Origin: a virus
Taxonomy: Duplodnaviria; Caudoviricetes
Reading direction: 5' to 3' (one strand)
IMG/VR virus record: IMGVR_UViG_3300026549_000043
Location: 1-64,000 of that record
DNA length: 64,000 nucleotides
Shown here: positions 2,608 through 61,776 of the stretch, in pieces
Numbering within the stretch: the first letter of the stretch is position 1
Layout of the letters: each line of letters opens with the position of its first letter
Notes under the pieces: generated by a model
The model's database searches: none
The model's input: only the letters and a program-made list of their open reading frames with translations
Told to the model about the DNA's origin: nothing
Program-made: the position numbers and the translations under genes

Positions 2608-4758
2608 ATGTCAAAATTATTATTAGAGAAAACTAGAAGAGAATTAATCAATCAATCAAAGGCTGCCGCCCCCGTAAAATCTTATGGTACTACTAGATAT
2701 GAAAGAAAAAATAAACAGCATATCTATAATAGTATTACTAATTTTAATAAGATTGATATGAATGCTTTATTCCAAGGTAATATGCTATCCTTTAAAGTGC
2801 CTGTTCATGGAGAAACAGATAATTATGAAGTTGAAGTACTTTTTGAGGGAATCTGTGATGGAATAAAACGTGAAGTAAAACGTAATAAAAATAAATTTGA
2901 ATATAAATGTGTTTATAGAGCATTAATCGATTCCATTAATAAACAAGATATTTATATTTCATGCTCATGCCCTGATTGATGTTTAGAAGGAAGCACCAAA
3001 ATAAAACTTTTAAATGGTGAAGTTTATACTGTAGAAGAATTAAAAGATAAATTTGATAAGGGCGAAGACCTTTGGGTATATTCAACCGATTCTAATGGTG
3101 ATTTTAAACCTGGACATGTTAATGATGTGTGGGTCAGTGGTTACACTACTGAGTTAGTAAAGGTTACATTAGACAATGGAGAAGAAATTTTAACAACTCC
3201 TAATCATAAATACATGCTTAGAGATGGATCGTATCTTGAAGCAGAAAAACTACAAAGTGGTCAATCTTTAATGCCTCTTTATTTTAGAGATACTAATGGG
3301 TATGAAAATGTAAAATTAAATTCTAAGAAACAGACTTCTTATTTTAGTGTTTACAAATTAGTTGCCAATGAACTATTAAAAGAAGAGATAGATAGTGCCA
3401 AGATAAGAAGTGGTGAAGAAGTTATTGCAATTCATCATATTGATTTTAATAAAAAGAATAATTATCCATCTAATTTAAAACCTATGGGTGTCCAAGAACA
3501 TTATAAATATCATTATGAACATGTTAAAGAATCTGGCGTATTGGATAAATGGATAAAGGCTGGTCAGGAACATAATAGGAAAGTGAAGGATCACTCAACT
3601 GAGGGGTATAAAATCCAAGCTAAGGTCATGTATGATGCCTTGTGGAGTGACAATGGCTACTATTCAAATAGAACACAAGAAGAAATAGATAGAGACTTTA
3701 CTGTTCACAGCAATGCAACAAAATCTGCCTGGGTAAGAGGCTGTTATAATACAGAGGCATTTAATAATGCATCAAAACAGAGGGGTGTTAATTTACATAC
3801 TCCTGAGGTTGAAGCCTTAGCTTTACAGGGTATCAGAAATCACTATAACAACTTATCTGACGAGGAAAGAACTAAAATTTCAAATAGAAATAAAGTAAAT
3901 AGTAAGACCGGCTGGCAAAATAACAGAGATAGTTATATGAAGAGTGAAAAATTTATGACCGCTAGGAAACATGGCTTTGATACTGTTCATACTGAAGAAA
4001 ATTTGTTAAAATCTAAAAAAAGTAGATTAGAAAAATATGGGAATGAAAACTATAATAACCCTCAAAAAATGAAAGTGTCTCGTTGTTTAAGAAATTTAAA
4101 AGAATTAATTGAAAAGAATATACCATTAACAGAAGAAAATTTCTATGCAAACAGAAGAAATGGAGACCCTCATTGAAGTAAAGTTTTTTCATCATTTAAT
4201 TCTATGTTAGAATACTTTGGTTTAAATGCTTATAATCATAAAGTAAAGAGTGTAGAATTTATTAAGTATGAAAACCCTATTCCTGTTTATGATTTATCAG
4301 TAGAAAAATGGAATAATTTTTATATCAATGCAGGAGTTATACTCCATAATTGCTATAGATTCTCTTACTGGGCTACTAAAGATAGATATAATGGTGGAAG
4401 ACCAGAGGTTAGAGTAGCAGATATTACTAACCCTAATAATAATCAGGGTGCTGGGTGTAAACATACCATTGCTGTTCTTTATAATTTGGATTGGGCTATG
4501 AAGCTAGCTACTAGTATTTCAAATTATGTTGAATATATGCAAGAAAATTATGAGGATAAATTTAAAAGATTAATTTTTCCAGCAATTTTTGATATTTCTT
4601 ATGATGAATATATTTCTGATGAGGTAGATGATGAATTGGCTAATTCAATGGATAATGAAGAAGACGTTGAAGAAATAGATAAATCTATAGAAAGAAGCCT
4701 ATATAAACCAGAGGAAGAAACCGAAGAAGAAACAGAAGAAGTCACGGAGGTTGAATAA
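2608..4758 (+). CDS. SWIM zinc-finger protein interrupted by an intein (TGA=Trp at 2977 and 4174)
   Basis: Three track ORFs share one frame and are separated only by TGA. The exteins join to CSCPDW|CYRFSYWAT...GCKH (CxC...CxH SWIM pattern). Confidence 0.85.
2980..4350 (+). mobile_element. Intein with HNH homing endonuclease (457 aa)
   Basis: Starts CLEGSTKIKLLNG; block B ILTTPNH; HNH IHHIDFNKKNNYPSNL; ends VYDLSVEKWNNFYINAGVILHN followed by Cys. Confidence 0.93.
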
Positions 4759-5483
4759 TGGAATTAAAAGAATATGTAGAACAAATAAAATTTCAATTAA
4801 CTGGAGGAATATTAGAAAGTGAATTAAAAGATTCTGATATAGAAAAAATTGTTATGTTTTCTTTAAAAGAATTAAATCGATATTATGATTCTACTGCTTT
4901 AGTTATGGCTGATGCTGCTAGTTGTATTGATTTAATTTCTTTACAAGAAAATAATAATATAAAGATAAGTTCAATTTCTAATGTTTATAGGTCTGAGGCT
5001 TCAGGGGTTTCATCTGGGGATGGAGCTACTACTTCAGATCCAATGTTTATCGCTCAGTGGAATTTTGCAAATAATTATTATGGTTATAATTCTAACAATT
5101 GAGCTTTGAACTATGCAGCATATAATACCATGCAGCAGATATCTTCTACTTTTTCTACTGATTTAGATTTTAAGGAAGATCAAGCTGGTGGTAAATTATA
5201 TATTAATTTTTCTAACGGGATGCCGTCTAAAGTTACCATTGAGTATGTTCCTAAGTTAGAATCAGTTGAAGAAGTTAAAGGTGAGTATTGAACCGATATA
5301 CTATTAAGACTGTCTTTAGCTCATACTAAAATAACTCTAGGCCGAATCAGAACAAGATATACTTTAAATGATGCTATTTGGGGCCAAGATGGTGAAACCC
5401 TTCTCACTGAGGGTAATACTGATTTAACCGCCTTGCGAGAAAGGCTTCAGACTCAGGCTAATTTCACCTATCCATGTGACTAG
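4758..5483 (+). CDS. Neck / head-tail adaptor, T4 gp13-like (TGA=Trp at 5100 and 5289)
   Basis: Continuous 241-aa frame. YWTDILLRLSLAHTKITLGRIRTRY...QDGETLLTEG matches the neck-1 pattern; position after the head genes. Confidence 0.7.
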
Positions 5484-5553
5484 CCCTGAAAATTTGTATA
5501 ATTTAAATATATCGTATTTTGCTAAATTAAATATAATAATGTGGAGGTAATAA

Positions 5554-7005
5554 ATGGACACAAATTATTTAGAGGAAGCTTTCAAAAGACTCAGCTTACT
5601 TGAAGATGATTTTGATATATCTGTCGATGCTGATAAAGTAGATGAATTAAGATCATTTATTGAAGATGATGTTGATGAAGTTCCTGAAGAAGAAATCATT
5701 GATGTAAAAGCCGATGATGAAACTGAGCTCCAAGATAATTATGTTGGAAAGGTTATTCTTGAATGTGAATGCTGCCATACCAGAATCTATAAAGATAAGG
5801 AAGAAGTATTTATCGACGAAGAATCAGGCTTGGCTAATATCAATGAACCATGCCCAGTTTGTAATAATGAATTGGGTTACACTGTAATTGGAAAGATTGA
5901 ACCATTTGATTCTGATAAAGAAATTAACCCAGAAGAAGATGAAGTAGAGATTACTCCAGATGATATCGAAGTTGAAGATGAAGTAGAAATTACTCCTGAT
6001 GATGTAACTGAGGAAGAAGAAGTCGAAGTTGAAGAATCATTAGAAAATAGAATCAACAGAAAACACTTACATGAAACTAAAGATGGAGTTTGTCCACATT
6101 GTGGAAAGAAACCTTGTGAATGTGAATCATTAGAAGAATGTGATTCATTGGAAGAAGGATTCGAAGATCCATCAAAGGTTGGAGTTGATCCAGATGTTTC
6201 TGTAGAAGATGATATCAAATTAGAGACTCCTCAGGATAATCCAGTAAATGAAGACCCAGCTGTTTTAGACTTGAAGGAAGATTTTAAGGAAGTAGAGATT
6301 AAAACAGATGATCAGAAATTAGAAATGACTTCAGATGACAATGGTAAGGTAACTGTTACTACTGAGCCATTAGAAGAAGAAGTAGCTGAAGAGGAAGTAG
6401 TAGATTCAATTACTACAGAACCTGATGACGCTGAAGTTGGTCCAGAGGAAATTGTTCCTTTAGATTCTGAAGAAGAAATCGAGATTGAAAATAATTCTCC
6501 AGAGGAAGAACAGAAAGAGGAAATTCCAGAAGAAGCTGTTGAAGATAAAGTAATTTCTAGTGAAGAACCTATTGAAGACAATGGTGAAGAAGAAGCGGAA
6601 GATGAATTAGATGTCGAAGACTTCGATGAAGAATCATTCGATGATATGGGTGAATCTTATATGCGTAAGGTTTATAGCAATGTAACTGGTTATAAGACTA
6701 CTAAAATTAACGAAAGTAATGGATCAATTTTAGTTGATGGCGTAATTACTTTTGATTCTGGAGCTAAAAAGAATACTCAATTCGTATTTGAAAATGCTAC
6801 TCTTTCTAGAAGGGGTAAATTAATTTTAGAAGGATATAACAAGACATTCTCTGAAGCTAAGAAATCTTTCATCATTAGAGGATTATTAGAAGGAAAGAAA
6901 TATATTCCTGAAAGCTTTATCTATAATTATAAAGTTAAACAGTTAAATGAATCAACCAATTCTAACGAAACAGTTAGAGTATTTGGAAGAATCAAGAAGA
7001 GATAA
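5554..7005 (+). CDS. Highly acidic head-associated protein with Cys clusters (possible scaffold/core)
   Basis: Very D/E-rich, CxxC pairs, many L/I-x-E sites, late promoter motif upstream. Confidence 0.45.
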   Translation: MDTNYLEEAFKRLSLLEDDFDISVDADKVDELRSFIEDDVDEVPEEEIIDVKADDETELQDNYVGKVILECECCHTRIYKDKEEVFIDEESGLANINEPCPVCNNELGYTVIGKIEPFDSDKEINPEEDEVEITPDDIEVEDEVEITPDDVTEEEEVEVEESLENRINRKHLHETKDGVCPHCGKKPCECESLEECDSLEEGFEDPSKVGVDPDVSVEDDIKLETPQDNPVNEDPAVLDLKEDFKEVEIKTDDQKLEMTSDDNGKVTVTTEPLEEEVAEEEVVDSITTEPDDAEVGPEEIVPLDSEEEIEIENNSPEEEQKEEIPEEAVEDKVISSEEPIEDNGEEEAEDELDVEDFDEESFDDMGESYMRKVYSNVTGYKTTKINESNGSILVDGVITFDSGAKKNTQFVFENATLSRRGKLILEGYNKTFSEAKKSFIIRGLLEGKKYIPESFIYNYKVKQLNESTNSNETVRVFGRIKKR

Positions 7006-12161: not shown

Positions 12162-14578
12162 ATGCCAAGTAATAAATCAAGTGAATTTAATCTTGATCAA
12201 AGAGATAAAGGTATTATTAGTGATGACCTTAAAAAGTCAAAAGAAAAAATAAAATCTCTAGAAGATTATCGAGAAAAACAACGTAAAGCCCAAAATAAAG
12301 AAGAATTAAAAGTTGTTGATCAAGCCCTAAAAAGAATTAGGGAAGAGCAAAAAAAGTTAAATAAAGAACTATACGATGCTAGGATTAAAGAAGCTAGAGA
12401 AGTAGCTGATATTGAGAAATCAATACAGGATCAAATCTCTGCCGAAAGAGATAAGTGGTTAGATGATTTTAATGCTGCTACTCATAAATTAAAAATAGGC
12501 GGCCAACAAATTCTTTATTTAGACGATACAACTAAGGGTAAAACTGCTAAGAAAGATTTGACGGCTTATTAAATGGATTTAAAGATTTAAAAAGTACTCT
12601 TGAAAATACCATGAATAGCTTCCTGGAAACCCAGTCAGCTATGGCTTATAATTTAAATGGTACGAGTAGATCATTAGAGGGTATTACTGATAATCTTGGT
12701 AAAGCATTAGGTGGTACTGGGTTAGTAAAACAGCAGGAAGTATATAAAAATTTACAAAACCTAGTTAATGAAGGTATTTTATATAACGTAGAGCAGAGAG
12801 CTTTCTTACAAACCATATCAGATGACCTGAATATGGTTTTTGATGCTAGTAATGGATCTTTAACTAGATTAATTAACTTACAACGAGTTGATTTATCTTC
12901 TAATAGGATGGCTATTGAAGCTTCCTTAAAAGAATTCTTAAATCAAAACTTTGAAACTAGTCAATATATCAAAGACGGATTTGCTAATGTTTCTAACGCC
13001 TTATTAGAAGCTCAGTCTATAATGAACGTCCAGAGTGGAATTAATCTTGAAGCTGTAGTACAACAGTGGATGGGTTCGTTATCTAGCGTTGGTATGAGTC
13101 AATCAACCATTGATGCTTTAGCTACTGCAATTGGCCAATTAGGTTCTGGAAATATTTCAGCCTTATCAGGAAGTAACATGCAAAACTTATTAGTCATGGG
13201 TGCTGCCAGGTCAGGACAATCTTATGCTCAGATGCTAACTGAAGGTTTAACTGGAGAATCAGTAAATGAATTAATGCGTGGTATTGTTGGCTATATCCAA
13301 GAAATTGGTGAAAGTACAAGTAACGTTGTTAGATCTGAATATGGAAGAATTTTTGGATTAAATGTTTCAGATATTGTAGCTGCTTCACAGGTTGGAAATG
13401 TAACTGAGAATGGAGTTATAACCGATGATATTAGTAGATTATTAGGTAGAATGAATGATTATGTTTATTCTACTCAACAAATTAATAATACCATTGAAAA
13501 TTTCATGTATGACTGGGCTACAGGTGTAGCTTCTAACAGAGATACTTATACTATGTACCGAATGACCGATATGCTAGGCAGTGTTGCTTCCCAGTTCGTA
13601 GGCGGTATGACCCTAGGAGTTAATTTCTTAGGTAATCAAATTACTACTGAGCTTGGCCCAATTTTAAGTGCAGCCCCATTAATAGCTACATTACCAAGTT
13701 TAATGGATTCTATTAACAATCTTGGTCCTAATATTGGAGAAACTTTAGATAATGCCTTTGGTGATACTTTCATTGGTAAGGGTATATCAAAATTAGTTAA
13801 TGAAAATACTCAGGGAATTTTTTCTGATGGTACCAACACGGTTGGTGCTAGAAGAGTTACTGGAGCTAATAGAATTTTCAATTTATTAGGTAACGGGCAA
13901 GATAGATCTCAATATATTAGAAGTACTGGATTACTTGGTGGGTTTACTAGAACTTCAGGTATAGAAAATTCTGGGGCTATGATTATTGGAAATACCAATG
14001 TTTCAGATATAGCTAGAAGTGCTAAAACTAGTGCTACAGATTTTGCTACTGAAAATTTAATTGATCAACCAGAAGAATACTATGATACAACTGATTTATA
14101 TAAGTTATTATCTTCAAGCCCAGATGGTCAAGAATGGCTATATGCATCTGATACTCATAAGTTATTAACTAATATTTATAGCAGTGGTGAGTCTAACTTA
14201 CATGGGGAATTAACTTCAATTAATTCTACTTTAAATGGATCAATCCATGAAATGTTAAATACTATTAATGATAGTATTTTATCATTACCTCAATATGAAT
14301 ATTCAACCTATTCAAAGATTGTAGCCTCAGCTAATACGGTTACAATCGGAAATGATTTGTCTTATGTTTCTGATGTAATGACTTTGTCTGCTATGAATAT
14401 TCAAAATATTTATAATTTATTATTCTCAACATTCATCGAAGGTGCTGGTGCCTATAAAGAATTAAGTACTGAAGGCTTTGGATCTAATGATACCAATAGA
14501 GCTGCTTTAGGCTGAGGGTTCAATCCTAATACTTCGGAAATAGGCTTAGTTCCTTCAACACAATCACAAGGCTTATAA
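12162..14578 (+). CDS. Tape measure protein (frame break near 12550; TGA=Trp at 14513)
   Basis: Coiled-coil N-part, then an A/G/S/L-rich helical region; canonical position after the chaperones; the downstream frame is open back to ~12552. Confidence 0.7.
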
Positions 14579-14592
14579 GGAGGTTAAATTAG

Positions 14593-15795
14593 ATGTATTA
14601 TAAATTTAATGAAACCAACATAGCTACTGGATATATTAAGGAACTATTAAAGGAATTTAATTTACCAATATATAAAGTATATACCGGTGATGTAAATAAT
14701 CCAGATGAAATAATATATCCAGGGAGATTTTATATAAATAAAAATAATATCTATGTAGGAGATAATTCTACCGAATCTCCTTCCTTAATAGAAGTAAATA
14801 AATATATTTATAATAGAAAACAAATTAATATTACTAAAAATTTAGTTATTAAATCATCTATATATGATTCATATACCCATACTTATTTAGGTAATTATTT
14901 AAGATTTTTAAGAGATTATAATAAAATTAATTTAATGCCTTTATATAATTGTTTTAACACTGAGACTTTAAATGGAGTTAATTTTTATATCACTACTAAA
15001 CTTGGGAATACTTTTGAAGTAAATACTAATAATAGTTCATATAATTATTATTTAGTCCCGATTAAATTTAATGAACAATATACAATTGCAATAGATTCTC
15101 CTACTAATTATGAAATCTGTTGTTTAATACATTCAACTTCAGAAATAACTGACTTATCTAAAGAATTAATGGCTAATACCTATACTAAAATTCCAGGGTC
15201 ACAGTTTAGTTCACCATATTTATATTCCACTGATTTTGATGCCAGTAAATATTGGCCTTTTGAAAATAACTTAAGGTTATTAATTAAACTCCCAAAGATT
15301 ATTGGTGATACTACAATAACAGTACTTGAGGGTAATTATACAGCTGGTGTAAAATGTCAGAATTCTATCATAGGCGAAATGGCCATTGATGATAAAAATT
15401 CTGTAGGAGTTTATCCTACTAGATTATCTTTATTAGAAGTTAATGATAAAGTATCATACCCATTTGCGGATAGGTTAATAGAATATTTAACTAATAATGC
15501 TATTATACCACAGGATCAAATAACAGATAATATTGGTAGACTTCAACAGGCTGTATATCGAAATACCTATTTTAAGGGAATATATGACCTATGAGGACCA
15601 TCACTTAAAAAAGAAATTTTTTATCAATTAAATAATCCAAGTGATAAGCGAGTAAGTTATGAAATTAAATCAGTAACATCAGATGAAACATACATTGCTA
15701 ATAACTCTAAAATAAAGTATTTAGATTTAAAGAATGATCTATTATCTTATGGGGATAAAGACGCTGAAACATTCTTAGGGGTATTGAGATGGTAG
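14593..15795 (+). CDS. Baseplate-module hypothetical protein (TGA=Trp at 15592)
   Basis: Readthrough fills the gap and overlaps the next start. Confidence 0.6.
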
Positions 15796-16592
15796 AACGT
15801 GCTAAATTAATAGATAATTATATATATTTTTATCACCTAGAAAAATTCTGTGTATTACCATTATACCCAGAATCAATTTCTGATACTTTAAATAGTACCT
15901 TCGTGCCTACTAATGCATTGTCTAGATCAGCTCCAGTATATACTTATTCTAATTCTGGTCCAAGATCAGTTCAGATATCTTTAAAGTTACATCGAGATAT
16001 GATGAATGATGTAAATACCAATGTTAGTAATTTAGATTCTAGAGTAGTAGAATTCAGGAATGAATACTATGACAATCGTGATGAAGATTATATTGATATT
16101 TTGATTAAATATTTACAAAGTGTAGCATTACCAAAATATCAAATTTATAACTCAGGATCTAAAGCAGTAATTCCTCCAATGATAGCCCTAAGATTTGGAA
16201 ATGATATTTTCATTAAAGGTGTAGTCAATGGTGGTATAACTGTTACCTATGAAAAGCCAATATTAGTAGGCAATAAATATGCTATTGCCAACATTAGTTT
16301 TAACGTTACTGAAACTGACCCATATGATGCAGTCAGCGTGGTTCAAACTGGATCATTTAGAGGAGTTTCAAGTACATTTAAAAATGGAATTTATAAGAGT
16401 GAATCTAGTACCCTCGGAGGATCTACTTCAGAAAATGGAAATCATCGTGGTGTATCAGGTTCTGGCAGTAGAGACTCACTAAGTAAATCAAATAATGAAA
16501 GAACTAATTTAAATGAAAATGGTAATTTATTAACTTACCTTAAAGAACCAGATCTAGATTTTGTATTTGGCGGAGTTAAAAGGAGGAGGTAG
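15789..16592 (+). CDS. Tail tube initiator / baseplate protein
   Basis: LSRSAPVYTYSNSGPR, PPMIALRFG, IKGVV. Confidence 0.6.
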   Translation: MVERAKLIDNYIYFYHLEKFCVLPLYPESISDTLNSTFVPTNALSRSAPVYTYSNSGPRSVQISLKLHRDMMNDVNTNVSNLDSRVVEFRNEYYDNRDEDYIDILIKYLQSVALPKYQIYNSGSKAVIPPMIALRFGNDIFIKGVVNGGITVTYEKPILVGNKYAIANISFNVTETDPYDAVSVVQTGSFRGVSSTFKNGIYKSESSTLGGSTSENGNHRGVSGSGSRDSLSKSNNERTNLNENGNLLTYLKEPDLDFVFGGVKRRR

Positions 16593-16594
16593 TT

Positions 16595-16912
16595 ATGGAA
16601 GTTTTAACTGATAAATCAATAAAAACCTATGACTATACCTCCAGGTATGCTCCTTTCCCATTCTATTTTAATAACGAAGATAATAAATATGTTTATGGAT
16701 TGACCAGCCAATTAAGTTTAAATACAGAATATACTATTCATATGGTCAAGGACACCGATACCCTTGATTATTTAGCTTATTACTATTATGGTAGGCCTGA
16801 TTTATTCTGGGTTATTGCTGACTTCAATCGTATTCAAGACCCATACATAAAATTATCTGATAAATTTAATTTTATATACATCCCATCGCTTTCAGGGGTA
16901 AGATATATTTAA
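16595..16912 (+). CDS. LysM-like baseplate wedge protein (gp53/gpX-like)
   Basis: DTLDYLAYYYYGRPDLFWVIADFN. Confidence 0.8.
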   Translation: MEVLTDKSIKTYDYTSRYAPFPFYFNNEDNKYVYGLTSQLSLNTEYTIHMVKDTDTLDYLAYYYYGRPDLFWVIADFNRIQDPYIKLSDKFNFIYIPSLSGVRYI

Positions 16913-16913
16913 T

Positions 16914-18230
16914 ATGGCTCAAATTATACAAGAAGTACCTGATGTATCTAGATCTAAAACTAGTAATAGAAATAGGATTGGTTCTCTAATTTCTAATACC
17001 TCCAGAGTAGAAGCTCCATTTATAAGAGTTAAAATAGGTGGCTATACCTTTGGTGTTTATGAAGAAAGAGAAACTACTATTGGAAATAATGGGATGTATA
17101 AAAATGTTTCAGCTAAGTACCCGAATTTTGTTCAATCGCTTGAAATAAAAAAGATTAATGGAACAGTCAATCAATATACCTTGGGAATATCTTATCCAGT
17201 AGCATATAATGATGACCCTAATTTCTTTGAAAAGCTTTTTAGTTCAATTTCACAAACTAGATTAATCAGTATTGATTATGGTGATTTTTCTTTACCTGAA
17301 TATATTTATAAAGAAGAAGAAGCTATTATAACTGACGTGTCTACTTCTTTCAATATGCAAAACACTGTGATTAATTATACTATTAAAGCTACCAGTACTG
17401 CCAGTTTAACCTTAAGTGGTTGTTATACTTTAGGAAATGTAACAACAAAACCAAGTGATGAAATAAAAAGAATTTTATATGATCCAGAATATCATCTAGT
17501 AGATGTTTTTGTTGGAATGAAAGATCGTAGCCTGGTAGAACAATCTGGATTAATTGCTTCTGATGATAAAATAGTTCATATCCCTACATGTACTAATATT
17601 TCTGTTTTAGATTATATTGCTTTATTAGTTTCATATATGACTCCAGCAGGAAGTCCTGGTACAAGTGCTATAAAAAGTAATGTATATTCTTTAACTACTA
17701 TGGAAGATACTTCAGGTGTTTATGGTGGACCATATTTTATGGTACAAAAAATCCAAAGTTCTACTAATACTTTAAATAAGTTATGTACTTATGAAATAGA
17801 TATTGGATATCAAACGGCCAATATCGTAACTAGCTTTAGTTTAAAAAATAGTAGTAACTGGTCAATTTATTATAATTATAATAATTCCTTAGGTAATTCT
17901 GATTATATTAAAAGAATTAATTCTAATGGAGAATTGGATTATGAATTCTCACCTCTTATTACTGGCACTAGGTTTGATTTAAATGAATCAGATAAATCTT
18001 GGTGAACTAAAGTAACAGAATTTCCAGTACAGGCTACTATAAATATTAAAGGATTATTAAAACCTGCTATCTTAATGAATTATGTAAAATTAAATGTGTG
18101 GTTCTATGGTCATAAGCATAATTCATCTGGTTATTATATTATAACTGGTCAAACTGACCGAATAGACTATGGTGGTTATAGAACAACTCTTGAATTAACC
18201 AGAGTAGCACCTGATGAGGAGATGTTATAA
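16914..18230 (+). CDS. Baseplate hub protein (TGA=Trp at 18003)
   Basis: Readthrough adds ATINIKG...SGYYIITGQTDRID..GYRTTLEL, a typical hub C-terminus, and ends in a TAATG overlap. Confidence 0.75.
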
Positions 18231-18649
18231 TGATATTAAAAGGGTATATAAAATCACTACCTAAAAATGGTACTAATATATTTAGAGTTAGAATACCATT
18301 TCTGGAAGATAATACAAGTAGAGAAATGGTCTTCGATGCTTTACTATGTAATCAACCAGGTGAATATCAAGGCTATGAAGTGGGAGACTGTGTCTTTGTA
18401 ATTTTTGAAAACGATAAATTAAACACTCCTGTAATAATGGGTAAATTATATATTGAAGATAGTAAATATTCTAAATCACATCATATTGTTAATAACCTAG
18501 ATGTTAATGGTACTGTAAATTTACCAGATAATACCACTATAGGTGGGTATTCTATAAATGATATTTTCCAGTTACAACAAGCTTCTTATATGGCTAATAA
18601 TCGTGAAGATATTCCATATAATTATGAACTTGTTGGCACTTGGTCTTAA
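18230..18649 (+). CDS. Baseplate spike (gp5/gpV OB fold)
   Basis: FRVRIP, VGDCVFVIFE, PVIMGKL. Confidence 0.75.
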   Translation: MILKGYIKSLPKNGTNIFRVRIPFLEDNTSREMVFDALLCNQPGEYQGYEVGDCVFVIFENDKLNTPVIMGKLYIEDSKYSKSHHIVNNLDVNGTVNLPDNTTIGGYSINDIFQLQQASYMANNREDIPYNYELVGTWS

Positions 18650-18663
18650 GGTGGTAGATTATA

Positions 18664-19032
18664 ATGAGATCAATAAAATTTCCAGATATTTTTAATAGAA
18701 CTACAACTAACATATCAAAAGACTACTATGCTACATTACAAAATTTAAAGATGTTATTATATTCAAATAAGGGTGAATTATTTGGAGATCCTTATTTTGG
18801 GTCTAATTTAAAAAAATATTTATATGATCAAAATGATGTTATATTAAGAGATATTTTAATTGATGATATATACACGGCTATTACTACTTTCATGCCACAA
18901 ATTTATATTGAAAGAAATAACATTACAATAAAAAGTGAAGATAACAAAGTTATTATAAATATAGTAGCTTTAAATAGAGCTAATTATCAAACTGATTTAT
19001 ATAGCTTGGTTTTATTAGATACTATTGTTTAA
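18664..19032 (+). CDS. gp25-like baseplate wedge / sheath initiator
   Basis: LYSNKGELFGDPYFGSNL. Confidence 0.85.
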   Translation: MRSIKFPDIFNRTTTNISKDYYATLQNLKMLLYSNKGELFGDPYFGSNLKKYLYDQNDVILRDILIDDIYTAITTFMPQIYIERNNITIKSEDNKVIINIVALNRANYQTDLYSLVLLDTIV

Positions 19033-19065
19033 TGTATATTATTTATTATGGAGGGTAAATAAAAA

Positions 19066-22000
19066 ATGATTAATGATAACGATATCCAATTATCTAAAAT
19101 GTCATTTACAGATAAAGACTTTGCTTCCCTTTACCCAGATTTATTAGATTTGGCTAGACAGCTTACTAATGAATGGGATCCTAGTCAATCAACTAATGAA
19201 TCAGATCCAGGAGTAGTTTTATTAAAAGAGGGTGCATTTATTGCTGACCACAATAATTATAATATTGATAAAAATATTTTGGAAGCTTTTTTACCTTCTG
19301 CTACACAGGATAGATCAGTACGAAATATTACTGAAATGAATGGTTACACTCCAAGATACTATGTGTCTGCGGTTGGAGATGTAACAATTACTTATAAACC
19401 AGAAGATGAAACTAATGTTAATGGTTTCATCATCCCGGCCTTCACCTTAGTAGCTACGAATAAAAATGAAGACGTAGCTTATACTCAAATTAGTAACTTA
19501 ACTATAAATAGACCAGGAGTTCCTTCTTCATGTAGATTTATGGAGGGTACTCTTAATACTTTAAAAATCAATGGTACTGACCAGATCTTACTTGAAAATA
19601 TTGATGAAAATAATAGATTATATTTACCTAATATTTATATTCCACAGAATGGTATTTTTGTTAAAAACTATGGTAGTAACGACAGTGACCTATGGGTTAG
19701 AAATAATTATTTATTAACACAACCACTAGGTTCAAAGATTTATAAATTTGACTTTGATTCAAGTGTAAATTTACCATACATTGAATTTCCTACAGATATT
19801 GTAAATATCATCGAAAATGGTTTATCTATTAGATATATTTCTACTACAGGTGTAAATGGTAATATTAAGAGTAATGAATTAATAAAGATTCAAACTCCAA
19901 AAGAATATGTTACTACAGAAGGGTATAATATAAAAGTTAGTGAAGATTTTGAGATATCCAATCAATCTTCTATCTTTAATGGTAAAAACCCTGAAACTAT
20001 AAATGAAATGTATAGATCATTTAAAAAGGTAGTTGGTACTTTTGATACCTTAGTAACTACAAAGGACTATACTAATGCCATTTTTAATTTTGAGGATGAA
20101 TATAATAATCCAATCATTTCTAATGATGTAGTTACTGATATTAGAAATGATTATAACTATTCAGCTAATGTTATTACATTTGACCAGTATGGTGAATATT
20201 TTGAAAATGTAAGTCTTAATTCCTTAACTTACCATTTTGTATTAAATGAGAGCGAAGCTTCAAATGAAGGAGATATCTGGTTCAACGGTACTGGGTATTC
20301 AGTAATAAAGAATGGTGTAGAGACTCCATTAACTTCATTATCATATAAGGATTTTTCAACTGCCAGTGAGGCTATGACTCCTTATGATTTATGCATTCAT
20401 GCATTGAAAGCATTTAGCATGAGTGATTATTTGGCTTCAGATCCAAGCTATGCAATTAAGAAATCTTTTGAACCTGCTGATATTCCAACAATGAAGGAAA
20501 TAAAGACTTCTTTAGGTGAATTAAAATGTATTAATCATACTTTTAAAGATATTGAGTCTGACGATGTTTATTACTTTAAAAATTACGTACCTTTATATGT
20601 TACAGTAACCCCATATTCAAAGGTAACTGAAAAAGAGAAAAATGAAATTTTCCAAAATTTATATAAAGCCATTTCTTCAAATTTTAACGCTAGAATGGTA
20701 GAATTTGGTGAAGAATTAAATTATGATGAAGTCTTAGATGTATTAAATAATGCTGACGACCGTATTAAGAGTATTAGATTAGAAGATTTTGAATATAGAC
20801 CAGTAGCTGTAAAATATAATCCGAATGTAATTACTGGTGATGAAATTACTGAATATGATGTTTATAGTACTACCAATTCAGAAATTTTAGTTGATTTAGT
20901 AGCTAAAAACGTTTTAGCTGGAAGATTATGTTTATTTAATATCGATGAAAATTATGATTATAAATATGGTCAACAGGATTTACAAACATTCCCAGATATT
21001 ATTAATATTGAGACTCAGTCAGTAATTCCTTCTAGCAGTGGCAGTGGTGGTGCTACAACTGAAACTAAGACTACTGGTGTAGAATTCTCAGGCGAAGAAA
21101 CTTCTGAAGGAAAATGGGGAGTTGAACTAAGAATCCCTGAAGCTACTTCTAGTAATACTTTCACTGTATCTAATGGTAGTAGTAAAAAATTACCAGTGGG
21201 AATGACCTTACAGGTTACACCTGTTAGATACTTTAATAATGATTTAACTAACTATACTCCTATTGATAGTGAGCAATTATATTTTACTAATAACATAAAT
21301 AATGACTATGTAAGAATTTATAATAATAATGTTTCAGGTAATACTGGTAACTGAACCTTTAGTACTTCTAATCCAAGGGTAGTACCAAGTGGAGCTCTGT
21401 CTATTGATGTTTCTGAAGTAGTCAATCAAATTGATGGTGGAAGTATTAACCATGTTGTTCAACAGAATGAATATGTACAGATAGCTTACCCTAATTATTA
21501 CTCTACTAAAATATACCCAGTATACTGTTATTATAGATATTATTTAGGCGGAGCTCAAAGTGATACTGATTTAAATAATCATGTAGTAAAGGCCAACACT
21601 GACTATAGGTTAAAATCTGGTGAATATTTAATAATGTTATATACTAAGGATGATCAAATCCAAGTTGATAAATATGGCCCAGGTGATACAATCAGAACAT
21701 CATTTGATATGAAGTATACTGATTCTTCTACAGGAACTAAGGTAGAAAAAACTTATACAAATGAAGTTGGAGCCCAGATTTCAGGTCAGTTCCTGGCTTT
21801 ATCTGCTAGCCAGCAAATAGAAATAAGAGAATTATTAGAAACCACTTTAAATAATATTAGTACTCCTTGTTTCTGGATAACAAATAATCCTGGAAATATT
21901 TTATTTGAAGAGAACCAAAGATCAGTTATTTTAGATTCAGGTGAATATTTCATCTATAGTAACCTCTCATATGATTCAATGGTAATCTTAGGAGCTGGAA

Positions 22001-23346
22001 CTAAATTAACAAGATCTAGCAATGATAATACCCAGTGGGCTTTAGGTAATACTAATGTAACTATAACTTCAATAAATGAAGAAGGTTATTCAGCTGGAAT
22101 TACTTGGGTTAATAAAGATTTCTCTGGTGAGGGTAATGCCTTTAAAATTCAGGAAATGAATATTGTTACTTTAGGTCCTGATGATAAATTAATTATTTCA
22201 GGTGATGTAGATGATATTACTAATGAATGGCAAACTTTACCAAAGACTCCAGCCGGTGGTGATGATTTAGTTATAACTTATATTATTGGAGATTCATCTA
22301 CTACTTTAAAATATAATGGCACTTTCAATTATGAAATTAGAAGCAGACTTGATATTTCATTAAATGATTTACAGGCACAGACTCTAGGTAATAATCAATC
22401 AGTTACCATTGAATATTTAAATGCTTCGGGAGAAAAACAAACTACAACGATTCAAAATTCTTCAGGTAACAATGTTACTATTCAGTCATCAACCAACTTA
22501 GAATTAATCGGTGATAATTCTATCGATTTATCCTTATATTCAAATAATAATATTCCAGTTGGTTTAATGTCATATACTGAAACATCACCAACCATTACTA
22601 TTGGTTCTGAAACCCAGGAACTAGAAGATGTTAATGGAAGTTATAGAGTTAATATTTCAGGTGATGATGGTGAGCTAGATTTTCCTTTCGGATATAATGT
22701 TACTTTTAATGATCTAAGTGAAACATATAAGCAATATATTTTACCTGTATTCTTACTAAGAGATAAAGACCCTGAAGACCCACAGTCTACAGCTGGACAG
22801 ATAACTGTACAAATTTATAATGGAGATACTCCAATTAATTTTATTGATTATAATTCAACAAGCCCAGCTACTTCTATGGCTCTTACTGATACTAATATGT
22901 ATTTATTATCACCAGTACTAGTACCTAATAGTAATCCGGGTAATGTAGAACAAACTTCAGGCTCTCAAACAATTAATACTAATTTAACCTTAAAAATTAC
23001 TTGGAGTAGTAGACCAACTAATACTGAGGCAATAGTAATTTATAATCCAATGGTTATTGATGGAATAAATTCTAATTTATCTTTTGTAACTTTAAATTCT
23101 GTTTTAAATAGAATTAACGAGATTGTTTCTAACTCTAATAAACCAGATATAAAGCCTTATTATATACATAAGCCTGATAGTGATATGGCTATCCAGGATG
23201 AGGATATTACAAATCCTAATATTTTCTGGGATAAAAACAATGTTGCAAATATTATTACCATCCCTCAAATTGATTTAGAAAATTCTAACTTTGAAATCTT
23301 AAAATCAATGGATCTTACTTTAAGAAGAAATTCTAGAGAGGCTTAA
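19066..23346 (+). CDS. Baseplate wedge protein, gp6/J-like, 1426 aa (TGA=Trp at 21352)
   Basis: FTDKDF, ESDPGVVL, LVTTKDY; two track ORFs are in frame with only a TGA between them. Confidence 0.8.
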
Positions 23347-23347
23347 T

Positions 23348-24512: not shown

Positions 24513-24515
24513 TTT

Positions 24516-25997: not shown

Positions 25998-26015
25998 AGA
26001 GTAGGAGATTAATTA

Positions 26016-42058: not shown

Positions 42059-42222
42059 TGGAAAAGAATGATAAAGAAAAAGTGATACCATCTAAGCCTG
42101 ATAAAAATGGATGGTTCAGGTGTCAGGTTTGTAATCAGATGGTAGGGAATGATAATTATTGTAAGAATTGTGGTCAGAGGTTAAAAGATGGATCTTGGAA
42201 AAAAATTCGAAGCTTTTTTTAA
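42058..42222 (+). CDS. Small zinc-ribbon protein
   Basis: CQVC...YCKNCGQRL. Confidence 0.6.
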   Translation: MEKNDKEKVIPSKPDKNGWFRCQVCNQMVGNDNYCKNCGQRLKDGSWKKIRSFF

Positions 42223-42655
42223 AAAAAATTGGATAGATACTGTACCAGAATCATTTATTTATAGATTAAATGACCAGATGTCTGGTTATATGGGTTCAAG
42301 CAATATTAGTGATTTTATTTGTTATAAAAAGCCTGAGTTATTTTTAATTGAGTGTAAGGCCCACGCCGGGAATACATTCCCCTTCTCAGCTTTTAGGCAA
42401 TATGAGGATCTTTCTCACTGATCTGACTTAGAAGGAGTTCATCCTGGAGTAATATTATGGCTATATGACCATGATGTTATCCTTTGAATACCAATAAAAA
42501 CTTTTATGAAATTAAAATCAGAAGATAAAAAATCTTTTAATATAAAATATTTAGGTAACCCAGATTATGAAAATGTTATAATTCCAACAAAGAAATTAAG
42601 GACTTTCTTGGATGGTGATTATTCAGTTTTAATAGATTATTATAAGGAGAAGTAA
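42188..42655 (+). CDS. RecU-like Holliday junction resolvase (TGA=Trp at 42419 and 42485)
   Basis: GKKFE, SDF...IECK, Q motif; readthrough ends next to the following ATG. Confidence 0.75.
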
Positions 42656-45313: not shown

Positions 45314-45496
45314 ATGAGATTCTATGTTTTATTTAATAAAAACAAAATGTTATTTTTTAATTCTGTTTTTGAATCTGAGAGAAAAGCTTTAGAATTAGAA
45401 AAAAATCCAAAGATTTATTATTTAGAATATGGAATTGTTAATTACGATGGTTGGATAAATTCCATTATAGCAGTACTTAAATGTGAGGAGAATTAA
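45314..45496 (+). CDS. Hypothetical protein
   Basis: SD GAGGT. Confidence 0.4.
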   Translation: MRFYVLFNKNKMLFFNSVFESERKALELEKNPKIYYLEYGIVNYDGWINSIIAVLKCEEN

Positions 45497-46506
45497 TGAG
45501 CATTTCTTTATCAATTAAATATAGGCCAACTGATTTTGATCAAGTTGTTTTCCAAGAGCCTGTGATTAAAATTTTAAATCAACAGATACAAACAAATTCC
45601 TTTGTAAATTGTTATATGTTTGTGGGACCATCTGGTTGTGGGAAGACTACTATGGCTAGAATTATGGCAAATAAAATAAATAAAGGACTAGGGAGTCCAA
45701 TTGAAATCGACGCTGCTAGTAATAATGGTGTTGATAATGTAAGATTGATTATAGAACAAGCCGATCAAAGATCTCTTGATTCTGAATATAAAATCTACAT
45801 TATCGATGAATGTCATATGCTTACTACTCAGGCCTGGAGTGCTTTATTAAAGTTAATTGAAGAGCCTCCAAAGTATACTATTTTTATGTTCTGTACTACT
45901 GAAATCCAAAAGGTACCTGAAACTATAAAAAATAGATGCCAGCAGTTTAAGCTAAAGAGAATACCTCTTAATCTGATAAAAGATAGACTAGAACATATTT
46001 GTAAAATAGAGAAAATAAATTATTCAGATGAAGGACTAGACCAGATATCTAAATTATCTCTGGGAAGTATGAGGCAAGCTATTTCTTATTTAGATAAGTG
46101 CAAGGATTATTCTGATAAAGTAGACCTTGAAAATACTTTGCAGGTCTTAGGTAATTTCAGTTACGATATTTATTTTAGATTAATAAATGCTATTATTGAT
46201 AAGAATAAGAATGAGATTATTACAGTAATTGAAACTTTATATAATAATGGTGATGATTTAAAATTATTTATAGATTTATTATTAGATTTTACATTAGATT
46301 TAACTAAGTTTATTATTTTTAAATCATATGATATTATTAAAATACCTCAAACGTATAAGAAAGAAATAGAATATACAATCAACGTAGAAAATCCAGGAAA
46401 ATATTATAATCATTTGATTGATAAAATTCTAGAATTAAAACAATTAATTAAAAATGATACCCTGGATAAAACTTCAATTGAAGTATTTCTATTATCAAGA
46501 ATTTAA
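45496..46506 (+). CDS. dnaX: Clamp loader gamma/tau subunit
   Basis: KYRP, GPSGCGKT, EIDAASNNGVD, IIDECHML, EEPP. Confidence 0.93.
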   Translation: MSISLSIKYRPTDFDQVVFQEPVIKILNQQIQTNSFVNCYMFVGPSGCGKTTMARIMANKINKGLGSPIEIDAASNNGVDNVRLIIEQADQRSLDSEYKIYIIDECHMLTTQAWSALLKLIEEPPKYTIFMFCTTEIQKVPETIKNRCQQFKLKRIPLNLIKDRLEHICKIEKINYSDEGLDQISKLSLGSMRQAISYLDKCKDYSDKVDLENTLQVLGNFSYDIYFRLINAIIDKNKNEIITVIETLYNNGDDLKLFIDLLLDFTLDLTKFIIFKSYDIIKIPQTYKKEIEYTINVENPGKYYNHLIDKILELKQLIKNDTLDKTSIEVFLLSRI

Positions 46507-47365: not shown

Positions 47366-47463
47366 ACCTCGGTCTTACTGTCCGGTGACAGGAACGGTCT
47401 TCAAAATCGTAGGACACGGGTCCAACCGTGTTTATGAGGGCTCGACACCTTCCCGAGGTGCCA
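47366..47463 (+). tRNA. tRNA with UCA anticodon (UGA reader), tRNA-Sec-like scaffold, 7/5 fold
   Basis: ACCTCGG/CCGAGGT acceptor, G73-CCA; D arm CTGTC-CGGT-GACAG; anticodon loop CT-TCA-AA; 8-bp variable arm; T arm GAGGG/CCTTC. Confidence 0.85.
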
Positions 47464-47466
47464 TTT

Positions 47467-47541
47467 AGATCTTTGGTGTAATGGTAGCACAGCAGTCTCC
47501 AAAACTGTTAGGTGTGGGTTCAAGTCCTACAGGGTCTGCCA
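47467..47541 (+). tRNA. tRNA-Trp(CCA)
   Basis: Cloverleaf; anticodon CCA 47499-47501; GTTCAAGT T loop; GCCA end. Confidence 0.92.
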
Positions 47542-49257: not shown

Positions 49258-49500
49258 ATGGAAAAATTAGGGATAGATTTAATTAATAAGGTTACGGAGT
49301 TTATAGATGATTCAGATGATGACGAAGCCGTTGAATTAGTTTCTACTTTATATATGATGTTGGTAGAAGTATCTAGTTCAGCTACGATTCTTACTGTTGA
49401 AAATAGACTTTTAAACCGAGAACTCGAAGATTATTATGATGAAGAAGAAATTAATGAATTAAATGAAAAGATTAAATCCGATAGTAACTTAGTTTCATAA
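49258..49500 (+). CDS. Hypothetical acidic protein
   Basis: ORF in operon. Confidence 0.45.
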   Translation: MEKLGIDLINKVTEFIDDSDDDEAVELVSTLYMMLVEVSSSATILTVENRLLNRELEDYYDEEEINELNEKIKSDSNLVS

Positions 49501-49781
49501 TGGAAAATGATATTAAAGAATTTATTTTAAGAAGGTTCAACAACGATAGTAATTGGTTAAACGGTAATTGCTTATGGTTTTCATTAATTTTAAGTCTTCG
49601 TTTTCCAGGTGGGAATATATATTACCTCCCAGTAGATGGTCACTTTGTTTATGAATATAATTCAAAATACTATGATTGGTCAGGTGAAATATCTTGCCCA
49701 GAAAACAAATTAAAACTTAATGATCTGAAAGAATTAGATCCAACTTGATATAACAGATTAATCCGAGACTGTTTTTTATAA
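49500..49781 (+). CDS. Hypothetical protein with GNC...H...YD motif (TGA=Trp at 49746)
   Basis: NGNCLWF, GHFV, YYDWSG. Confidence 0.55.
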
Positions 49782-54597: not shown

Positions 54598-54603
54598 TAT
54601 ATT

Positions 54604-55428
54604 ATGAACCCATTATTTAAAAAGCCTAAAGACGTCCGATTTGTAGATATGGCTATATGAATTGATAACAATATTTATAAAGAAGATTGTGATATGGATA
54701 AGGCATTTACTTACATGTATTTATTGGCCTATATGTTAGCTAGTAAAGCTAAGTATTTTAATACTATTGCTGACTATGATGGCTTTGCCTATTTCTTGGC
54801 CTACTCAACTTATAGTAGGTATAAGGATCAAAGTAAGAAGCCGGTAAAATCGGTATTAAATTATATGAAATCAATTATGTATTTCAGAAAGTTAACTTAT
54901 GACCGGGAAACATTCTGTGAAGTAATAAACCCAGAATATAATACTAATTGGGATGAAAATAAATATAAAAATAGTAGAATTAATTCCTTAGAATCTCAGA
55001 ATAGAACAAATTTAATTCAATTAAGTATTCAAGACATTTTTAGTGATATACCAAAAATAATTTTTAAAAATATACCAAAGATATATTTTAGTGATAATTT
55101 AATTAAAAATAATATTTATAAATCTACCCTATTATCACTATTAAGCAGCTATACATTACCACAAGAATTTCAAATAAAATTACAGAAAAAGTTAGAAGAA
55201 AAATCAACTTTTGATGAAGCTTCTTTCTATAAAAAACATTTAACCAAGGATATAATTTTATGACATTTACCAGATTCAATGGAATCAGTAGTCAGGCTGG
55301 TTATAAATAAAACGAACCAAGACTTAATTGAATTAATTCGAGGATTATCTGATGAAATAAAGGTTACTGAATATGATTTAGATCTAATGTTTAAATCGGC
55401 TTATGAGAATTGAAATGAAGAGTCCTAA
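54604..55428 (+). CDS. Hypothetical protein (TGA=Trp at 54658, 55261 and 55411)
   Basis: Readthrough fills both flanking gaps. Confidence 0.6.
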
Positions 55429-56769: not shown

Positions 56770-56773
56770 TTAG

Positions 56774-57377: not shown

Positions 57378-57379
57378 AT

Positions 57380-58467: not shown

Positions 58468-58470
58468 TTT

Positions 58471-58867: not shown

Positions 58868-58881
58868 ACGAAGGAGTTTTT

Positions 58882-59097: not shown

Positions 59098-59099
59098 TT

Positions 59100-60851: not shown

Positions 60852-60874
60852 ATTTAATATATAAAATGTCAATA

Positions 60875-60915
60875 CCTAGTCTGGTGCTGGCCGGCCCGCT
60901 GGGTATCAGACTAGG
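60875..60915 (+). promoter_or_regulatory. Hairpin overlapping the endonuclease Shine-Dalgarno
   Basis: CCTAGTCTGGTGCT/GGTATCAGACTAGG pairs into AGGAGG. Confidence 0.7.
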
Positions 60916-60927
60916 AGGAGACTTTTT

Positions 60928-61776
60928 ATGGGTAAAATTTATACTTATATTCATAAAGGTCAACAGAATAGTAAATGTAAAACAGTTGACCTTTGTTTAT
61001 TTCTTAATGATGGATGAGAACTTGGTTGACCAAATATTCATGATCACATGGTTAAAATGAGTAAGAAAGCCGCTGAAAAATTAAGTGATTTGAAAGAAAA
61101 TAATTATGAAGATTATGTAAAATTCCAAGAAAATAAAAGTAAAAATGTGTCTAAAGGTTTACTTAAATTTTGATCAGATGTTGCAGATAAAGAGTATATA
61201 AAAAATCGTGAGGAAAAGAAGCAAGAATCGAGAGATAATTGAACACCTGAAGAGCGTGAATTATATCATAATAGGATGTCTGAATCAGCCAAAAGGGATA
61301 GGGCAAATACATCCCAAGAAGAGTATCATAGAAGAAGTGTTTTAGCTACTGAAACGAAGAAGAGAAACGGTACTATGAACACATCATCCTATGAAAATAT
61401 TACATATGATTTATTAAGAACAATTTATGGTGATGATGATATCATCTATGATGATTATGTAGATGATAGATACTCAACAAAATGCGATTTCTATATCAAA
61501 TCATTAGATATATTTATTGAATTAAATATTCATCCATCTCATAATAATCACCCGTTTGATGAGAATAATGCGGATGATTTAAGTTTAGTAGAAGAATTAA
61601 AATCTAAAGGTGATAAATGATCGAACATGATTTTAGATGTTTGATGTAGACGTGATGTCGAGAAATTCAATCAAGCTAAAGATAATAAATTGAATTATAT
61701 CTTAGTGTATCCAAATAACTTTGATAATTTTATACTCGCAATAAAGGAGAATAGAATATGAGATTTAGTGAAATAA
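60928..61776 (+). mobile_element. Free-standing Vsr/EDxHD-like homing endonuclease splitting nrdD (6 internal TGA)
   Basis: SD AGGAGG; SSYE...CDFYIKSLDIFIELN...H...[W]..RD.EK...AK...LNY. May instead stop at TGA 61761. Confidence 0.8.

Follow-up and report, generated by a model that had tools for sequence, protein, structure and literature searches.

Sparse, gene-biased reading of TGA as tryptophan, and a presumed decoder tRNA(UCA), in an uncultured myovirus of ruminant guts

Introduction

The window analysed here is a 64,000-nucleotide stretch of viral DNA, the first 64 kb of the IMG/VR record IMGVR_UViG_3300026549_000043 (139,874 bp, ~140 kb), in which a number of open reading frames (ORFs) continue in frame through TGA codons. 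This raises the questions of which amino acid TGA encodes, what decodes it, and why it is sparse and unevenly spread among the genes. The best explanation as a whole, to which we assign a probability of roughly 0.8, is that a phage transfer RNA with the anticodon UCA, tRNA(UCA), decodes UGA as tryptophan in a host that uses the standard code, and that TGA is retained or favoured in few genes. A preliminary description of the same DNA had proposed a sparse, uneven reading of TGA as tryptophan, seen as a recent or conditional recoding in which one or two TGAs gate the neck, tape measure, hub, wedge, fibre, initiator and resolvase genes.

The record has 31% guanine plus cytosine (GC) and a CheckV completeness of 83%, and its + strand carries nearly all genes. 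Gut runs of cattle, sheep and goats, drawn from 14 studies, contain near-identical DNA, and a search of a cultured-phage collection returned no close relative; the phage is an uncultured myovirus of ruminant guts.

TGA encodes tryptophan

For codon comparison opposite each TGA, 188 related loci (given L-numbers below) were fetched from IMG/VR; loci chosen by NrdD had little in common beyond nrdD and added few columns. The comparison yielded 19 TGA columns with 103 aligned cells, in which tryptophan occupies 41, tyrosine 20, phenylalanine 18, lysine 12 and leucine 5 cells, with few others (serine 1, cysteine 0, glycine 0), against a background of 0.7% tryptophan. A substitution-based likelihood, weighted by column, places tryptophan best, 26 log units ahead of phenylalanine or tyrosine. 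The two codons also interchange: TGAs of the relatives face TGG in the window 24 times and TGA 14 times, and opposite the TGAs at 14513, 15592, 18003 and 24471 the codons in L001–L004 are solely TGG or TGA.

Repeats point the same way. In unrelated crAss-like phages the fibre repeat AYVNVPWTDTNT has its tryptophan where the window has the TGA at 25653, and within the window the repeats VHNGSGWV (TGG), VHNGSGWV (TGA at 26472) and VHNGSNWV (TGG) are as the preliminary description gave them, together with VNVPwTDTNT (25653) and IQSwM (29740). Columns, likelihood, interchange with TGG and internal repeats thus bear out the assignment made there, and the identity of TGA as tryptophan is settled to the extent that comparative data allow.

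Two other readings of the codon were tried and rejected. Table 25, in which TGA is glycine, as in phages of Absconditabacteria and Gracilibacteria, finds no glycine in the 103 cells. For selenocysteine insertion there is no cysteine in these cells, the acceptor stem of tRNA(UCA) has 7 bp and not 8, and the match of this tRNA to the Rfam tRNA-Sec model lies below the gathering score (39.3 bits, gathering score 47).

Census of in-frame TGA codons

All TGAs named in the preliminary description are present, each in frame in a + strand ORF that is open under translation table 4, the six of 60928–61644 (positions given below) as well as the following:

2977, 4174, 5100, 5289, 14513, 15592, 18003, 21352, 24471, 25653, 25863, + strand: TGAs confirmed in frame in table-4 ORFs
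26178, 26472, 29740, 42419, 42485, 49746, 54658, 55261, 56027, 57578, + strand: TGAs confirmed in frame in table-4 ORFs, continued

Our own list holds 39 in-frame TGAs in the window. Five of these (47131–47561) are artefacts from ORFs that overlie tRNA genes, and four (8645, 61759, 63131, 63304) stand at gene ends as possible stops, which leaves ~30 internal codons, in agreement with the earlier figure of about 30. TGA is 18-fold rarer in frame (2.1 per 1000 codons) than in the other two frames (37.6 per 1000). Re-calling genes with table 4, a check that had been proposed, raised the coding density from 0.873 to 0.939 and the mean ORF length from 217 to 244 amino acids, and an internal TGA occurs in 38 of 168 genes (~23%).

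A presumed decoder tRNA

From its sequence, the UGA decoder is most likely a tRNA encoded in the window, whose gene lies beside one for a conventional tryptophan tRNA:

47366..47463, + strand: tRNA(UCA), presumed UGA decoder, 98 nt, anticodon loop CU-UCA-AA (Rfam, cloverleaf fold)
47467..47541, + strand: tRNA-Trp(CCA), 3 nt 3' of tRNA(UCA) (ARAGORN; Rfam tRNA, 60.1 bits)

The acceptor stem of tRNA(UCA) has 7 bp with an A1-U72 pair, followed by the discriminator base G73 and an encoded CCA; the D stem has 5 bp, the D loop 4 nt and the variable arm 8 bp. ARAGORN missed this gene and reported solely tRNA-Trp(CCA) and a tRNA-Gln in the window. A covariance model built from tRNA(UCA) found an ortholog in L007 (78 bits) and, on the same scaffold, a tRNA(CUA) in L009. 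Among these three UCA/CUA sequences both partners have changed in 14 of 30 pairs, and pairing is intact in 98.8% of cells as against 40–47% when the partners are slid, values that come from a three-tRNA alignment that had been fitted to the model. In L006, the closest relative in this region, ARAGORN reports a tRNA(tca) and a tRNA-Trp(cca). We infer from the tryptophan columns and from A1-U72 and G73, which we take to be identity features of bacterial tRNA-Trp for tryptophanyl-tRNA synthetase (TrpRS), that tRNA(UCA) is charged with tryptophan.

L009 is a TAG-to-glutamine sister of this phage (L009:6764-8946) whose tRNA(CUA) (L009:11640-11728) sits on the long-variable-arm scaffold of the window's tRNA(UCA), so that one scaffold serves two stop reassignments in close relatives. 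A contig ~97% identical to the window, from the bovine DNA run X4 (2025), has ~296 other letters in place of 101 bases at 47365–47465; this replacement of the tRNA(UCA) gene indicates that the suppressor locus varies between strains. In tRNA-Trp(CCA) the D stem has a U11-A24 pair (read from the Rfam result), presumably the same state as in the Escherichia coli Hirsh UGA suppressor and in Bacillus subtilis tRNA-Trp, and this tRNA might add near-cognate reading of UGA.

Elsewhere in the region, a tRNA-Thr with the anticodon UGU (48953–49023; Rfam 43.6 bits) that ARAGORN missed lies directly 3' of tRNA-Gln(UUG). Between the tRNA clusters, contigs of three runs (two RNA libraries and one DNA library) skip 26 bases at 48520–48547, which could reflect a length variant or a collapsed repeat. 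The depth of RNA-library contigs is higher over 46–49 kb; such depths cannot rank genes, and we draw no conclusion from them.

Distribution of TGA among genes

Matches to PHROG and Pfam describe a myovirus with two modules in the window:

0–26.5 kb: virion module, with major head protein, adaptor, sheath, tube, hub, tail and fibre proteins
26.8–64 kb: replication and nucleotide module, with helicases, initiator, DnaB, primase, PolA, clamp, resolvase, clamp loader, SbcCD, a deformylase-like protein and a split NrdD

The unevenness claimed in the preliminary description is significant in permutations of TGA between genes (p 0.0018 in the window, p <5e-5 in the genome), and genome-wide it holds when the three homing-endonuclease genes are left out (p = 0.005). 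In the window the effect hangs on a single ORF, at 60928–61776, and is lost without it (p = 0.14). TGAs lie along genes where TGGs lie, with no 5' or 3' bias (p = 0.89). A gene's TGA share in the window is correlated with that in the relatives (rho 0.41, p 0.004), and sharing of individual TGA sites beyond this gene-level effect is not significant (p 0.14).

The capsid, sheath, tube, PolA, DnaB, DnaG, SbcD and SbcC genes and both parts of NrdD had been correctly identified in the preliminary description, and together they contain 0 TGA and 38 TGG. With the helicase added the count becomes 0 and 42, for genes picked after the fact; the absence of TGA from these major virion and core replisome genes is suggestive. 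The pattern recurs in L004, at ~40% protein identity: its sheath and tube lack TGA, and its baseplate genes contain TGAs.

The proposal that TGAs gate the neck, tape measure, hub, wedge, fibre and initiator genes finds no support in the form given, as one or two TGAs per gene fit a uniform rate of ~14% per tryptophan codon. Where a neck, tail, fibre or initiator gene has a single TGA, no special explanation is needed, because heterogeneity is not significant once the ORF at 60928–61776 is removed, the two modules have equal TGA shares, and TGA positions match those of TGG. Of the genes named there, the resolvase does show enrichment, being recoded in TGA and TAG sister phages; the equal modules and the lack of position bias speak against gating at large. 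As judged from these sequences, the gene-specific enrichment is real for the homing endonucleases, the resolvase and the ORF at 54604–55428, two of which are given here:

60928..61776, + strand: endonuclease-like ORF splitting nrdD, with 6 internal TGAs (61015, 61027, 61171, 61240, 61618, 61642) and 0 TGG
42188..42655, + strand: Holliday-junction resolvase gene (PHROG 843), with TGA at 42419 and 42485 and 2 TGG

The three homing-endonuclease genes of the genome contain 11 TGA and 1 TGG, compared with 53 and 379 elsewhere (p 3e-9). Searches with the ORF at 60928–61776 gave no Pfam or PHROG name, and we infer its endonuclease function from its position inside nrdD. Its TGAs at 61618 and 61642 align with TGG of L112, and a further TGA, at 61759, overlaps the ATG of the second NrdD piece. 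NrdD itself is in two pieces (59100–60851 and 61758–62216) flanking this TGA-rich ORF, an arrangement also present in L112, including the ATGA overlap. Opposite the resolvase TGA at 42485 the aligned codons are TGG 9, TTT 9, TAT 3 and TGA 2. The resolvase homologues of L006 and L025 have 3 TGA to 1 TGG and 3 to 0, respectively, and the resolvase of the TAG-recoded L009 has 5 TAG versus 2 CAA/CAG, as opposed to 8:91 in the other aligned genes (p 2e-4).

The remaining genes with TGA are as follows:

2608..4758, + strand: virion-module ORF with an intein carrying an HNH endonuclease (Intein_splicing, residues 134–581); TGA at 2977 and, within the intein, at 4174
4758..5483, + strand: head-tail adaptor-like gene; TGA at 5100 and 5289
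12611..26543, + strand: tail, baseplate and fibre genes with 1–2 TGAs each (14513, 15592, 18003, 21352, 24471, 25653, 25863, 26178, 26472)
29695..30558, + strand: replication initiator gene; TGA at 29740
45481..46506, + strand: clamp loader gene (PHROG 5846); TGA at the second codon (45484), aligned codons TGG 8 and TGA 3
49500..49781, + strand: small ORF (PHROG 4814); TGA at 49746, and 4 TGA to 1 TGG in the L006 homologue
55943–56272, + strand: ORF with TGA at 56027, which aligns with TAT, TGG and TTT
57380–58093, + strand: peptide-deformylase-like gene; TGA at 57578

A recoding hot spot with a possibly sigma-like fold

The preliminary description listed two TGAs (54658 and 55261) of an ORF directly 3' of SbcD and SbcC and did not single out the gene, whose family is the hot spot of recoding in many related phages:

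54604..55428, + strand: ORF of 274 amino acids, modelled as all-helical with a sigma-region-2-like N-terminal domain; TGA at 54658, 55261 and 55411, and 1 TGG

Its family has 665 representatives at E <= 1e-3. Fifty-one loci centred on it were fetched, of which ten are TGA-type. Across these ten, the family contains 25 TGA and 5 TGG, compared with 37 and 226 in other ORFs of at least 100 amino acids (odds ratio 30, p 1e-14), and compared with conserved neighbours only the counts are 20:4 versus 11:112. The family member has the highest TGA count of all ORFs in 8 of the 10 loci. The TAG-type locus L187 has 5 TAGs in its sigma-like ORF (L187:8001-8798) and 3 in 21 other ORFs. In a quick tree (FastTree, no support check), recoded members are spread over several parts among standard-code members. 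In the 142-sequence family alignment, the column of TGA 55261 (column 220) holds W 80, Y 37 and F 24.

In L162 the sigma-like gene (L162:3287-3823) has 4 TGA and 0 TGG, versus 0 and 11 elsewhere in the locus, and in some relatives (L187, L162) this gene is nearly the sole recoded gene within ~16 kb.

A structure model from the deep alignment (predicted local distance difference test score, pLDDT, 94) was compared with 48,161 PDB chains. For the N-terminal domain (residues 9–105), sigma region 2 accounts for 9 of the 11 best matches, with Z scores of 5.9–7.3: ShbA has Z 7.3, and T4 gp55 is second-best of the 48,161 chains (Z 7.2, root-mean-square deviation 3.3 A over 91 residues). An earlier model of lower quality led to the same result. 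Other searches returned nothing of this kind. Pfam and PHROG gave no named family for 9 or for 142 family members, and the cultured-phage collection had zero matches. Foldseek found nothing in the PDB at E <= 0.001 with either model, a family profile found nothing among PDB sequences, and hhalign found no similarity of the family to T4 gp55 (probability 0.5%). Sigma70_r2 (PF04542) had no match in the genome. The T4 late-promoter motif TATAAATA is not enriched in the window (33 matches versus 27.5 expected), so that genes cannot be classed as late by it. A literature search returned no paper linking a sigma factor to recoded stops.

TGA share, relatives and the host

Of the tryptophan codons, TGA accounts for 0.169 (window) and 0.145 (genome), and the A-ending share in the A/G pairs represented by AAA, GAA, CAA, TTA and AGA is 0.60–0.89. 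The TGG dominance noted earlier for this AT-rich genome is therefore confirmed, and the same figures do not fit a native table 4 genome of Mollicutes type, in which TGA would be the preferred tryptophan codon.

The idea that the recoding is recent finds no support. A quick tree of the clamp loader (Shimodaira–Hasegawa-like approximate likelihood ratio test, SH-aLRT) places the window in a starred five-member clade with L006, L007, L008 and L009 at 0.7–1.0 substitutions per site. Relatives at up to this distance are recoded too, one of them with an orthologous tRNA, and TGA-recoded relatives have TGA shares of 9–25%. Since deeply diverged relatives are similarly low, recency does not explain the low share, which appears to be maintained, as would be the case were UGA costly to decode. 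Within the five-member clade, L009 is TAG-recoded (TAG opposite Q 4, E 2 and others), and other neighbours in the set of relatives are standard-coded; the coding-density gain per locus was too noisy for classing relatives by code, L009 excepted. The word conditional, by comparison, holds in spirit, given the phage's own tRNA(UCA), the 23% of genes with TGA and a few TGAs at stop positions. Such conditional recoding, with a tRNA of the phage's own, has been put forward for recoded phages that infect standard-code hosts (Borges et al., 10.1101/2021.08.26.457843). The host of this phage most likely uses the standard code, as far as the phage's sequence can tell. Searches of the 83%-complete record for Amidase_2, Amidase_3 and Glyco_hydro_25 returned none of them, which is uninformative on the host cell wall either way.

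TGAs that may still terminate

TGAs are over-represented near the ends of ORFs. Of nine junctions at which the start codon of the next gene overlaps an in-frame codon (NTGN), five have the form [AG]TGA (61759, 63131, 63304, 68260 and 85938), and these lie 6–10 nt 3' of a Shine-Dalgarno (SD) motif and 0–7 codons ahead of a TAA or TAG. Two of them belong to the following feature:

62957..63312, + strand: pair of small ORFs, each with a TGA (63131, 63304) overlapping the next start (ATGA, GTGA) behind a Shine-Dalgarno motif; probable stops

At 65400, a TGA stands opposite the TAA that ends the orthologue in L008. From this context a few TGAs at SD-ATGA junctions, mostly in small-ORF regions, are probably real or recent stops. 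The end-proximal TGAs at 14513, 24471 and 26472 are sense codons by alignment or internal repeat, and the base at +4 does not differ between TGA and TGG (p 0.26). Outside the window, at 85938–85943 of the genome (L131:1938-1943), the sequence ATGATAA has a TGA that overlaps the next ATG and is followed by TAA, a tandem stop.

Discussion

We propose that tRNA(UCA), probably charged by the host TrpRS, competes with host release factor 2 (RF2). Decoding of UGA would be slow and costly and would depend on accumulated tRNA(UCA) because of this competition. Selection would then purge TGA from bulk virion proteins and the replisome, and would tolerate or favour it in a few genes with products needed late or at low levels, namely the homing endonucleases, the Holliday-junction resolvase and above all the sigma-region-2-like protein (54604–55428), which may be the factor for late transcription. 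The single TGAs in tail, neck and initiator genes would for the most part be scatter and not gates, and a handful of TGAs at SD-ATGA junctions may act as stops still, or did until lately.

Other accounts of the codon, its decoder and the host have to be weighed against this proposal. An origin of the TGAs in sequencing or assembly errors, pseudogenes, frameshift sites or RNA editing has only the metagenomic source of the contig in its favour and is refuted for practical purposes: the frames run on, conserved, past the TGAs, and independent assemblies hold the same codons. The 97%-identical contig L129 retains TGAs 5100, 5289 and 8645, and contigs from two RNA-library runs are identical to the window across the TGA sites in 42000–61999, with TGA and not TGG (DNA may be present in those libraries); in the 2025 bovine DNA run an A>G change at 42487 makes TGA 42485 a TGG. 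It is improbable that UGA is read by leaky read-through with a near-cognate tRNA-Trp(CCA) of phage or host, or that tRNA(UCA) inserts serine or selenocysteine. The U11-A24 pair of the phage tRNA-Trp(CCA), which we take to have suppressor meaning, would suit leaky reading, but with as many as 6–7 TGAs per ORF the read-through product would be vanishingly low. The type II scaffold and G73 recall tRNA-Ser and tRNA-Sec, and L112 contains a phage tRNA-Ser(UGA) with a scaffold like that of tRNA(UCA); yet the TGA columns all but lack serine, cysteine and glycine, A1-U72 with G73 presumably suits TrpRS, and the UCA anticodon loop is kept while the stems covary. That the same scaffold bears CUA in the TAG-to-glutamine phage L009 also argues for anticodon-driven charging. 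More improbable still is a host that itself uses table 4, whether Mollicutes-like or another recoded bacterium, with the phage following it. All genes are compatible with table 4 and the record contains no release-factor gene, but the TGA share is 0.15 at 31% GC, the SD-ATGA junctions and the TGA aligned to a relative's TAA resemble stop use, the phage encodes the UGA decoder, and close sister lineages are standard-coded or read TAG as glutamine. In phages of recoded hosts ~90% of genes are reported to be recoded (Borges et al., 10.1101/2021.08.26.457843), as against 23% here, and the same authors predict standard-code Firmicutes or Bacteroidetes hosts for such clades.

Whether the enrichment serves a purpose is a separate matter. 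A master gate, in which tRNA(UCA) licenses translation of the sigma-like late factor and of DNA-cutting enzymes (resolvase and homing endonucleases), is a tentative idea, possible rather than probable. With such a gate on the sigma-like factor, bulk late proteins would themselves need no TGA. We are equally hesitant about the account without gating, in which TGA is a poorly decoded tryptophan codon that drifts to its AT-biased equilibrium in the least-expressed genes and is purged elsewhere. TGA shares of ~0.8 in the enriched genes (25/30, 11/12) are close to the A-ending share of other codon pairs (0.60–0.89), the neutral AT-biased expectation, so that relaxed selection alone could yield the enrichment; TGA positions along genes that equal TGG positions, site sharing explained at the level of genes and not of sites, and modules that do not differ in TGA share fit it as well. 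Drift is harder to reconcile with ten loci in which dozens of small or uncharacterised ORFs stand at 14% TGA versus 83% for one gene, and with a TAG-recoded lineage that singles out the same sigma-like gene, and likewise the resolvase. Repeated and near-exclusive targeting of the 54604–55428 family by both TGA and TAG favours a gate over relaxed selection. A precedent for late restriction of resolvase and homing endonucleases is found in T4, which delays endonuclease VII (gene 49) and its intron homing endonucleases by hairpins that sequester the ribosome-binding site in early transcripts. Sequence cannot separate an adaptive gate from relaxed selection.

Several points weigh against the explanation by a phage tRNA(UCA) in a standard-code host with TGA favoured in few genes. 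Besides the match of the enriched genes to the neutral share, window heterogeneity rests on the ORF at 60928–61776, and the virion module (TGA share 0.176) does not differ from the replication module (0.163). The standard-code host is predicted from the phage side, whose 83%-complete record contains no RF-1 domain (RF1/RF2) and no TrpRS gene. A long variable arm with G73, as in tRNA(UCA), is also typical of tRNA-Ser and tRNA-Sec. The sigma assignment comes from fold matches of Z 7.2–7.3, which are middling for helical domains (values <8 are not decisive) and have no sequence support. The likeness to the Agate clade discussed below is a likeness in traits.

Comparison with known systems

The preferred explanation has a close published parallel. 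Stop-codon-recoded gut phages of standard-code hosts, including the TGA-to-tryptophan Agate clade, were described by Borges et al. (bioRxiv 10.1101/2021.08.26.457843; later Nat Microbiol 2022), who report that an Agate intron endonuclease prefers TGA, propose that recoding delays translation, and find code plasticity within the clade; the preprint mentions neither sigma nor resolvase as preferred targets. By the traits it shares with this description, the present phage looks Agate-like. These traits are an origin in animal guts including cattle, a genome of 140 kb (127–154 kb reported), low GC, TGA-to-tryptophan recoding that touches a minority of the genes, a suppressor tRNA encoded by the phage, standard, TGA-recoded and TAG-recoded members within one clade, virion modules spread over the genome, and a preference for TGA in a homing endonuclease that lies within an early gene (here the ORF at 60928–61776 in nrdD, 6 TGA:0 TGG). 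It differs in that the replication module is recoded per tryptophan codon as often as the virion module, in that major virion proteins are TGA-free, and in a suppressor tRNA with a long variable arm that ARAGORN misses.

Native table 4 organisms (Mycoplasmatales, Entomoplasmatales) and their phages likewise read UGA as tryptophan, and tandem genes for tRNA(UCA) and tRNA-Trp(CCA) occur in Mycoplasma capricolum. In native table 4, TGA is the main tryptophan codon and the UGA-reading tRNA is a normal type I tRNA-Trp; to our knowledge RF2 is absent there and TGA never ends a gene. Here, by contrast, the TGA share is 0.15, TGA occurs at stop-like junctions, and the tRNA is of type II.

With T4 there are two analogies. 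The delay of endonuclease VII and the intron endonucleases concerns the same gene classes, although the means proposed here would be a tRNA-dependent codon and not a hairpin. T4 gp55 (PDB 7d7c/7d7d, chain F) superposes on the N-terminal domain of the 54604–55428 protein (Z 7.2), and synteny is similar, with gene 55 between 47 and nrdG/nrdD in T4 and the present ORF between SbcCD (gp46/47) and nrdD. However, gp55 has 185 amino acids as compared with 274 here, where an extra helical C-terminal domain is present, and neither sequence nor profile comparison shows the two to be similar.

The recoding itself is an instance of a published phenomenon and matters mainly for correct annotation, as under table 11 about one quarter of the phage's genes are split. 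To the open question of what recoded stops are for, the analysis adds that in many related phages one uncharacterised family with a sigma-like fold and nucleases are preferred carriers, under TGA and TAG alike, and that late structural genes at large are not. If the 54604–55428 protein does drive late transcription, the suppressor tRNA would stand at the head of the late-gene cascade.

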